From a virus (taxonomy: Duplodnaviria > Heunggongvirae > Uroviricota > Caudoviricetes): a stretch of 23,325 nt of DNA. Positions 13,525 to 13,724 of the stretch are shown piece by piece. Both the position numbers and the translations under genes were made by a program. Position 1 is the stretch's first letter. Each line of letters opens with the position of its first letter. A model generated the notes under the pieces. It had not been told where the DNA came from. It worked only from the letters and a program-made list of their open reading frames with translations, and made no database searches. The stretch is from the IMG/VR virus record IMGVR_UViG_2511231170_000001. One strand, given 5' to 3'.

Positions 13525-13547
13525 GCCGGAGAAATCCGGCTTTTTTT
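13525..13547 (+). terminator. Rho-independent terminator (GCCGGAGAAATCCGGC + T7)
   Basis: Hairpin then T-run immediately upstream of cos; paralogous to 11085-11106. Confidence 0.6.
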
Positions 13548-13620
13548 ACGGGTCCTTTCCGGCATATGGACCCGTTACGGGGCGGCGACCTTGCGGATTT
13601 TCGCTATTTATGAGCCTTTT
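13541..13620 (+). other. Lambda-type cos site: cosQ-like TTTACGGGTCCTTTCCGG, cosN GTTACG|GGGCGGCGACCT (predicted 12-nt cohesive end 13580-13591) and the adjacent conserved segment
   Basis: Near-identity to the recalled lambda end-joint ...TTTACGGGTCCTTTCCGGTGATCCGACAGGTTACG / GGGCGGCGACCTCGCGGGTTTTCGCTATTTATGAAAATTTTCCGG. Confidence 0.75.
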
Positions 13621-13621
13621 C

Positions 13622-13697
13622 GGGTTGGTGGTGGTGGTTTTGTTTTTCGCTCTATCTCTATGAATAAAAAGGGAAAGATAACACCAACACACCAACC
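13622..13697 (+). promoter_or_regulatory. Candidate cosB-equivalent: GGTTGGTG-type repeats (GGTTGGTGGTGGTGG at 13623-13637, inverse CACCAACACACCAACC at 13682-13697) flanking an AT-rich segment
   Basis: Lies between cosN and the small-terminase start, where lambda has its Nu1-binding R sites, but the motifs are different. Confidence 0.35.
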
Positions 13698-13724
13698 TGA
13701 AACCTTAACTAAGTGGGGATATTG

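Follow-up and report, generated by a model that had tools for sequence, protein, structure and literature searches.

The element analyzed here lies in a 23,325-nt stretch of viral DNA (IMG/VR record IMGVR_UViG_2511231170_000001; the whole stretch is called the window below), which was matched to Escherichia coli 'clone D i14' (NC_017652.1, 244510-267834). The window contains EcCIDi14, a 10.6-kb phage-inducible chromosomal island (PICI) catalogued at CP002212 249047-259688 in the supplementary table of Fillol-Salom et al. 2018 (PMC6092414) and also named in PMC10111431. Comparison with lambda and with related islands suggests that the segment 13545-13724 is probably cos1, the packaging initiation/termination site of EcCIDi14. 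It would belong to a TerS-type module, in which the small terminase subunit (TerS) of the island, placed on the island's own cosB, brings the large subunit (TerL) of a helper phage to cosN.

A sequence-only reading of this DNA had proposed a lambda-type cosQ and cosN with an identical cohesive end, a repeat set unlike that of lambda at the position of cosB, and a Nu1-like gene directly downstream. Alignment with lambda and profile searches bore out this anatomy. Both cosQ and cosN proved nearly identical to their lambda counterparts, with the same spacer length between them, and the 12-nt overhang was the same base for base (Table 1). BLASTN against lambda-like phages aligned positions 13545-13626 at ~83% identity (E ~1e-15). 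The composite pattern ACGGGTCCTTTCCGG-N11-GTTACGGGGCGGCGACCT occurred once in the window (13548-13591) and in 0/100 shuffles. By homology with lambda, nicks are predicted at 13579/13580 on the top strand and at 13591/13592 on the bottom strand, which would leave the 12-nt 5' overhang GGGCGGCGACCT (13580-13591); base pairs are numbered below from the first position of this overhang. The single mismatch to lambda in the cosN 22-mer is T for C at bp 13.

The lambda R sites were absent from the island cosB, which shares only 8/16 bases with lambda at R3 and 5/16 at R2, and their proposed replacement between cosN and the Nu1-like gene was confirmed. The repeat GGTTGGTG was present at 13623-13630 on the plus strand and at 13690-13697 on the minus strand; five copies were counted in the window against 1.09 expected, a number reached in 0/100 shuffles. 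The inverted arms extend to 13 nt (13618-13630 and 13690-13702) with 92% complementarity. Since the cosQ, cosN and overhang matches are unique in the window, the R positions are unmatched and the GGTTGGTG repeat is present, the observation is considered real. The repeat set itself had to be revised. The inverted pair exists, but the 'direct' component turned out to be a (GGT)n run (13627-13637), and the left copy of GGTTGGTG (bp 44-51) is not a conserved element, as it lies mostly in the variable stretch bp 36-49, where relatives carry GGGTGGTG, GGGTGCTG, GGGGACTG and others. Similarly, the cosB region had been located correctly, but the functional region runs past 13700, where it had been closed, to the terS ATG at 13725. 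A degenerate R consensus, GGTKGGTGKWTTG, searched with one mismatch, was discarded after it recovered only the R2 copy and a chance match at 15859.

Because the (GGT)n tract makes the register of R3 ambiguous, conservation was used instead of repeat alignment. The family sample consisted of 80 IMG/VR loci and 6 E. coli loci with TerS 81-100% identical to the island TerS, and nucleotide diversity (pi) was computed over 63 distinct family sequences. In lambda, R3 occupies bp 50-65 and the inverted R2 approximately bp 105-120 (PMC9026076). When the pi pattern (Table 1) is set against these coordinates, the two most constrained non-coding blocks of the family fall on the coordinates of R3 and R2 and, like the lambda sites, are oppositely oriented. 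The inverted 13-bp block ACACCAACCTGAA (13689-13701, bp 110-122) was invariant in all 63 sequences, and the conserved cosB blocks of EcCIDi14 equal the family consensus. The distance from overhang bp 1 to the terS ATG was 145 bp in 83/85 loci. Every TerS read from the 80 IMG/VR and 6 E. coli loci was 180 aa long; residues 14-45 were invariant except for T/I at 28 and A/T at 37, and the C-terminal third varied. Judging by the diversity at codon positions (pi 0.06 at positions 1/2 vs 0.23 at position 3), terS is under purifying selection, and the DNA-binding domain of TerS and the cosB blocks are co-conserved in these sequences.

The terS product matched Pfam Phage_Nu1 (PF07471) with 83.9 bits (cut-off 30; E 1.2e-23) and PHROG 57 'terminase small subunit' with 1.3e-52. 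It aligned with lambda Nu1 at 37% identity over 178 positions, from the helix-turn-helix region through the lambda C-terminus, and in BLASTP residues 6-45 were aligned with Nu1 residues 3-47. By this alignment, the island TerS is full length, with the Nu1 C-terminal region included. The phage collection held no TerS record at least 48% identical to it (the best was N15 gp1 with 47.6%), and the closest TerL-linked TerS, with 52% identity, belonged to the lambdoid prophages L003 and L004. According to the annotation, EcCIDi14 has no TerL gene, and TerL followed terS in 0/86 relatives (among the 80 IMG/VR loci no downstream open reading frame (ORF) exceeds 179 aa, and the 6 E. coli loci carry no TerL annotation there). 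In an AlphaFold2 model built with 20 homologues, the N-terminal topology was beta-a1-a2-beta-beta-a3, i.e., the winged helix-turn-helix order, with block-mean pLDDT (predicted local distance difference test) of 70-81 over residues 1-40, and a fold of this type is likely for the TerS N-terminus. A phmmer search gave no match of TerS to the Nu1 domains in PDB, and the PDB sequence search returned nothing relevant.

The IMG/VR database was also scanned for the overhang variant GGGCGTCAGGCG in a cosN context, and four kinds of site were found. These were true lambda-like phages (L098, L103 and L115, with Nu1 98-99% and gpA 99-100% identical to lambda), PICIs whose cosB and TerS are both PICI-type, PICIs that combine lambda-type R sites with a chimeric TerS (L104, L105 and L111), and PICIs with a lambda cos but neither TerS nor Rpp, the packaging redirector of other islands (L101 and L102). 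The chimeric TerS is lambda Nu1 up to about residue 102 and of the PICI lineage from there on. The PICIs with a PICI-type TerS N-terminal domain carry GGTGG-type blocks. Hence, since the natural chimeras pair the N-terminal half of lambda Nu1 with lambda R sites, the cosB type follows the N-terminal half of TerS. The cos1 sites of the GGGCGTCAGGCG PICIs turn to the PICI-type cosB just after I2, and the compared sequences indicate that PICIs and phages swap cosQ-cosN-I2 irrespective of the cosB type. The family overhang is usually GGGCGGCGACCT, with the variants GGGCGTCAGGCG, GGGCGGAAGGCG, GGGCGGCAGACG, GGGCGGCTGACG and GGGCGTCGACCT (loci listed for the variants: PICIs L006, L067, L071-L073, L076, L077, L082, L083 and L085-L091; phages L098, L103 and L115). 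A correlation of the overhang variant with the C-terminal type of TerS was tested, and none was found.

Such modular inheritance would be expected if cosN is read by TerL and cosB by the DNA-binding domain of TerS. Seen across the compared loci, the packaging slot of the PICI family is modular and may hold Rpp, a PICI TerS, a lambda-type cosB with a chimeric TerS, or a lambda cos alone. Sequence comparison established the anatomy of the EcCIDi14 site, its homologies, how it is conserved and its modular inheritance. The division of labor put forward in the sequence-only reading, with a helper TerL that cuts and an island TerS that targets, is partly supported, being consistent with the lack of TerL, the full-length TerS, the co-conservation, the chimeras and the shared cosN variants.

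In the proposed mechanism, a lambda-like helper phage would induce the island, leading to its excision and replication. The N-terminal domain of the island TerS, a likely winged helix, would bind the R3-equivalent (bp 50-65), the inverted R2-equivalent (bp 106-122) and a weak R1-like copy near the ATG, and its Nu1-like C-terminal part would recruit the helper TerL. TerL would then nick the lambda-type cosN and leave the overhang described above. The island DNA would be packaged rightwards through terS into proheads made by the helper, and packaging would stop at a downstream cos, read via cosQ-cosN-I2. In this scheme, the binding of TerS to the cosB blocks and to the helper TerL, the cut position and the identity of the helper are inferred.

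Three E. coli genomes (NZ_CP157262.1, NZ_CM128584.1 and NZ_CP061206.1) carry an identical or 99.7%-identical cos1-terS module. They also hold a lambdoid cos-terS-terL 100% identical to that of the CFT073 prophage, with a 21-type cosB and a lambda-type cosN. The CFT073-type prophage is a candidate co-resident helper in these three genomes. An attempt to guess the helper from the TerS C-terminus and the TerL N-terminus of lambda, the CFT073 prophage and the L004 prophage was abandoned, as identities of 33-58% were not discriminating.

Several observations weigh against the proposed role of cos1 and TerS. The left copy of GGTTGGTG varies within the family, and the register of the repeats is ambiguous owing to the (GGT)n tract. 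A third, direct R copy, AGTTGGTGTATTA, adjoins the ATG in many relatives and is degenerate in EcCIDi14. The consensus of the integration host factor (IHF), YAANNNNTTGATW, was absent with up to two mismatches from the spacer between the R3- and R2-equivalents (13645-13684), in a scan of low power that gave 167 matches window-wide vs 205 expected; at the homologous spacer position, prophage L004 has TATCTAATTGATA, one mismatch away from this consensus. The AlphaFold2 model of TerS is of low confidence overall (pLDDT 61.7), and its best Foldseek matches, the MerR-like winged-helix DNA-binding domains, were non-significant (E >=0.04). The C-terminal 45 residues of TerS share only 42-51% identity with their counterparts in three lambdoid phage types (44% for lambda, 51% for L004), so compatibility with a helper TerL cannot be read from the sequence. 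EcCIDi14 sits inside an insertion sequence (IS) element, and its second cos (cos2) is truncated, with cosB and the final 4 nt of the overhang deleted. Finally, the published transfer of such islands was poor: after induction of resident prophages, EcCIIHE3034, a TerS-type member of the family, gave <1 to 40 transductants, and EcCI18098, stated to encode TerS, gave <1 to 110 (PMC6092414). The TerS of EcCIIHE3034 is the same protein as that of L005 and is 87% identical to EcCIDi14 TerS.

The prophages L003 and L004 offer the nearest view of a phage counterpart. Their cosB runs R3, IHF-like site, R2 and R1, and its R core GGTTGTTGTAT differs by a single base from the island core GGTTGGTGT (in full GGTTGGTGT(A/G)T). 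The prophage counterpart of GGTTGGTG is GGTTGTTG, which differs by G-to-T. The helix region of TerS reads SVQAFDKW in the prophages and SATAFDKW in the island, whose type of DNA-binding domain is marked by SCRVSATAFDKWGV. With R cores one base apart and similar helix regions, the island TerS/cosB looks like a diverged lambdoid pair. More distant PICIs encode TerS proteins 54-57% and 73-74% identical to the island TerS, some of the 54-57% set being named Enterobacter or Citrobacter, and keep the layout, with R3 TGGTGGTGGTGTTGTT, R2 core (A/G)GTGGGTGTATT and helix region VGVTAF or VGLT(S/A)F.

A broader idea can be put forward tentatively, and we rate its chances as somewhat short of even. The family may possess a self-contained orthogonal packaging specificity exclusive to satellites, in which a complete TerS works with the helper TerL without the helper TerS. 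Its DNA-binding domain and cosB would have diverged from the lambdoid lineage by as little as one base of the R core, and the cosQ-cosN cassette would be swapped by recombination at I2 to suit the available helper nuclease.

The same gene could also serve in the way of Rpp, which is the main competing reading. The island TerS would then hetero-oligomerize with the helper TerS via the shared Nu1 oligomerization region, poison the recognition of the helper cosB and supply the island DNA-binding domain, and the helper TerS would bridge to TerL. Rpp acts so in the sister island EcCICFT073, where the phage TerS is essential (PMC6739421, PMC6092414), and terS occupies exactly the slot of rppA. Conservation between the island TerS and phage TerS is highest in the central region, which makes mixed oligomers plausible. 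Nevertheless, this mode appears unlikely to us. The Rpp proteins have 139-154 aa and lack the C-terminal TerL-binding region (PMC9026076), whereas the island TerS aligns to the very C-terminus of lambda Nu1, and a complete TerS would need no bridge. An Rpp-like identity was tried for TerS and for its 137-aa and 93-aa neighbors and rejected. BLASTP gave no alignment of the island TerS with RppA, no RppC match in PDB was obtained for any of the three proteins, the PDB sequence searches with the two neighbors returned nothing relevant, and the place of the packaging redirector is taken by a Nu1-family TerS.

Alternatively, the cos-terS unit might have been copied from an unsampled lambdoid lineage that is the natural helper, and the island cosB would then be the helper cosB with no orthogonal specificity, as in P4 and the cos-type Staphylococcus aureus pathogenicity islands (SaPIs). 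A lambda-type cosB does occur in some PICIs of the family, whether or not they have a Nu1-like gene (L101, L102, L104, L105 and L111), and the near-identical R core of L003/L004, with their 52% identical TerS, would suit such an origin. However, neither the phage collection, the 80 closest IMG/VR relatives nor the inspected E. coli matches (from a search in which 765/5426 complete genomes held the module) contained a TerL-linked copy of the island TerS, the best TerL-linked relative being the one at 52%, and we regard borrowing as improbable. Hardly any weight is given to the view that cos1 of EcCIDi14 is a decayed relic trapped in an IS element, its likeness to lambda no longer functional. 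The nested position, the truncated cos2, the degenerate R1-like copy, the deviating bp 13 and the poor transfer of TerS-type islands in the one published test would all agree with decay. Against it, all ORFs of the island and both attachment (att) repeats are intact, terS and cos1 are 100% identical in at least five genomes, the cosB blocks equal the family consensus, terS shows the signature of purifying selection, and many relatives likewise have T at bp 13 and a truncated cos2. Targeting of a helper TerL by the island TerS therefore remains the explanation that we prefer.

Part of this picture is already known: the island is catalogued, Fillol-Salom et al. 2018 reported that some E. coli PICIs encode TerS (PMC6092414), and the combination of helper-like cosQ/cosN with an island cosB has been published for the Rpp island EcCICFT073 (PMC6739421, PMC9026076), where the island-specific cosB of cos1 redirects packaging (PMC6739421). 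EcCIDi14 is a sister of EcCICFT073. Both have the right-end order capsid, decoration, 137-aa protein, cos1, terS or rppA and 93-aa protein, the right end of EcCICFT073 having been read at L007:463-3655, where the 144-aa protein is RppA. The two share the island family, an island cosB between cosN and the gene of a winged-helix protein (a likely one in EcCIDi14), an inverted second cos downstream and a lambda-like cosQ-cosN-I2 (between the two islands 14/14 over bp -20 to -7, cosN 21/22 and I2 25/31, the I2 count being equal to that for lambda). They differ in the protein, since Rpp (144 aa) has no TerL-binding tail and needs the phage TerS, and EcCIDi14 encodes a Nu1-family TerS of 180 aa. They also differ in cosB: the Rpp islands have one proposed R3 (R3-PICI), no repeats and, at bp 55-63, the sequence ACCACCACC (Fillol-Salom 2019; Murialdo & Feiss 2022, PMC9026076), whereas EcCIDi14 has blocks at both the R3 and R2 positions and the reverse complement GGTGGTGGT at bp 51-59.

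With lambda, EcCIDi14 shares cosQ, the spacing, cosN, the overhang, I2, the position of terS directly downstream, the blocks at the R3/R2 coordinates with R2 inverted, and a TerS that is a full-length homologue. Unlike lambda, it has unrelated R sequences, no IHF consensus and no TerL gene after terS. Its cosB is compressed, with the ATG at bp 146 vs bp 191 in lambda (PMC9026076), and its TerS has a shorter linker of the DNA-binding domain and a C-terminal extension of ~13 residues compared with Nu1. The case resembles lambdoid phages with a common cosN but a different cosB and TerS (lambda vs 21; N15), in which specificity comes from R sequences paired with the TerS recognition helix, except that EcCIDi14 is a satellite without TerL, portal, protease or tail genes. 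If the proposed mechanism is right, it would parallel the TerS of the pac SaPIs, a satellite small terminase that pairs with the helper TerL to package satellite DNA. Those islands, however, use headful pac packaging in Gram-positive hosts and a separate inhibitor of phage TerS, Ppi, whereas EcCIDi14 has a cos and defined ends. In P4 and the cos-SaPIs (SaPIbov5), a satellite cos is likewise cut by the helper terminase, as is proposed for EcCIDi14, but these copy the whole recognition site of the helper and encode no TerS, whereas only cosQ, cosN and I2 are helper-like in EcCIDi14. No paper that characterizes either the cosB of TerS-type E. coli PICIs or their helper was found in a literature search of incomplete coverage, with subscription journals mostly outside it.

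Rpp is the only packaging mechanism of E. coli cos-PICIs worked out so far, and the TerS-type islands, noted in 2018, were not mobilized at high frequency (PMC6092414). The TerS-type module is commoner than the RppA-type one: it was found in 557-765 of 5426 complete E. coli genomes, vs 97/5426 for the RppA-type cos1-rppA module (megablast, >=80% coverage; RppB and RppC types not counted). If the satellite-exclusive specificity outlined above is true, Rpp would be a minority solution in E. coli, and the TerS-type islands would allow a natural test of whether TerS bound at R3 is enough to place TerL at cosN. The present analysis bears on the question of Murialdo and Feiss as to which subunit anchors TerL at cosN. 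The analysis supplies targets for such work, i.e., the predicted DNA ends, two conserved blocks at the R3/R2 coordinates, an invariant DNA-binding domain of TerS and natural chimeras that act as domain swaps. It also yields rules for predicting which prophages are able to spread TerS-type islands among pathogenic E. coli.

Table 1. Coordinates of EcCIDi14 features in the window, and nucleotide diversity (pi) by segment of cos1 and terS in the family
Feature	Position	Strand	Remarks
PICI EcCIDi14, whole island	4538..15179	+	flanked by 26-bp att repeats 4538-4563 / 15154-15179
Likely terminator of the capsid-side operon	13524..13547	+	GC hairpin GCCGG-AGAAAT-CCGGC, then T7 run; abuts cosQ; read from the sequence, inverted-repeat search
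cosQ-like element TTTACGGGTCCTTTCCGG	13545..13562	+	18/18 vs lambda; 11-bp spacer to GTTACG as in lambda
cosN	13574..13595	+	21/22 vs lambda; overhang 12/12
I2-like segment between cosN and cosB	13592..13622	+	bp 13-43; 25/31 vs lambda
R3-equivalent	13623..13644	+	GGTTGGTG 13623-13630 (variable in the family) and near-invariant TGGTGGTGGTTTTGTT 13629-13644 (bp 50-65)
Spacer at the lambda I1 position	13645..13684	+	conserved CTATCTNTATGAAT and A-rich tract
R2-equivalent, inverted	13685..13702	-	reverse complement TTTCAGGTTGGTGTGTTG; overlaps the lambda R2 position (bp 105-120)
Degenerate R1-like element AAGTGGGGATATT	13711..13723	+	overlaps the terS ribosome-binding region; AGTTGGTGTATTA in other family members
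terS, Nu1-family small terminase, 180 aa	13725..14267	+	Pfam PF07471, PHROG 57, PGAP 'terminase small subunit'
cos2 remnant, inverted, truncated	14265..14307	-	starts at the terS stop codon; cosQ-like CAGGTCCTTCCTGG and GTTACG|GGGCGGCG, then ends
pi, R3 block	bp 50-65 (13629-13644)		0.014
pi, I2	bp 13-35		0.048
pi, R2 segment	bp 104-120		0.084; holds most of invariant ACACCAACCTGAA
pi, variable stretch	bp 36-49		0.231
pi, spacer	bp 66-103		0.138
pi, terS third codon positions			0.229
pi, terS first and second codon positions			0.06

EcCIDi14 shows the hallmarks of the Gram-negative, EcCICFT073-type PICIs: int, an alpA-like regulator, a primase/helicase replicon, a size of ~10 kb, its own att and no lysis or tail genes. 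Its order is integrase, AlpA-like regulator, Icd-like protein, DUF4222 protein, RepA-type helicase, SSB, gpE-like major capsid protein, gpD-like decoration protein, 137-aa protein, cos, TerS and 93-aa protein. The att repeats, read directly at both ends, are CGGTGTAGTTAATGGTGTAGTTAATT. The insertion target is an IS110-family transposase gene. The insertions are nested (window 1845-4423 and 15237-15734), with tnpC of an IS66 element split by ISEc45 (IS110 family) and the ISEc45 transposase gene in turn split by the PICI; EcCIDi14 has therefore integrated into a mobile element.

A full inverted cos2 is present in L005, L008, L011 and EcCICFT073, with differing phage-type cosB of the CATGTCGG-, GTCAGATCC- and CATGTCCGG-type. 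Among the distant TerS-type PICIs, those of L092-L096 (metagenome and sequencing-run assemblies, TerS named Enterobacter/Enterobacteriaceae) lie inside a prophage major capsid gene and are followed by a truncated Phage_cap_E, FI and a head-tail attachment gene, an arrangement that resembles a 'helper-embedded PICI'. Their accessory genes after terS encode FRG-domain and DUF3892 proteins.

The hairpin upstream of cosQ was found in one subgroup of relatives only; a simple promoter/terminator scan did not flag it and found no terS promoter. A 396-aa ORF (6423-7613, plus strand), unannotated in RefSeq, gave no Pfam match; its residues ~50-82 weakly match an anti-repressor (Ant/BRO-like). The ORF overlaps YlcI/YnfO (7130-7435), a gene annotated on the opposite strand, and may be real or spurious. 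The 137-aa protein encoded just 5' of cos (13105-13518) matched the C-terminal part of PHROG 53 'head maturation protease' with 1.5e-9. The matched region is part of the lambda gene C that also encodes the Nu3 scaffold. Together with the genes of the gpE-like capsid and gpD-like decoration proteins (11690-13092), the 137-aa protein gene may constitute a partial head-assembly set encoded by the island.

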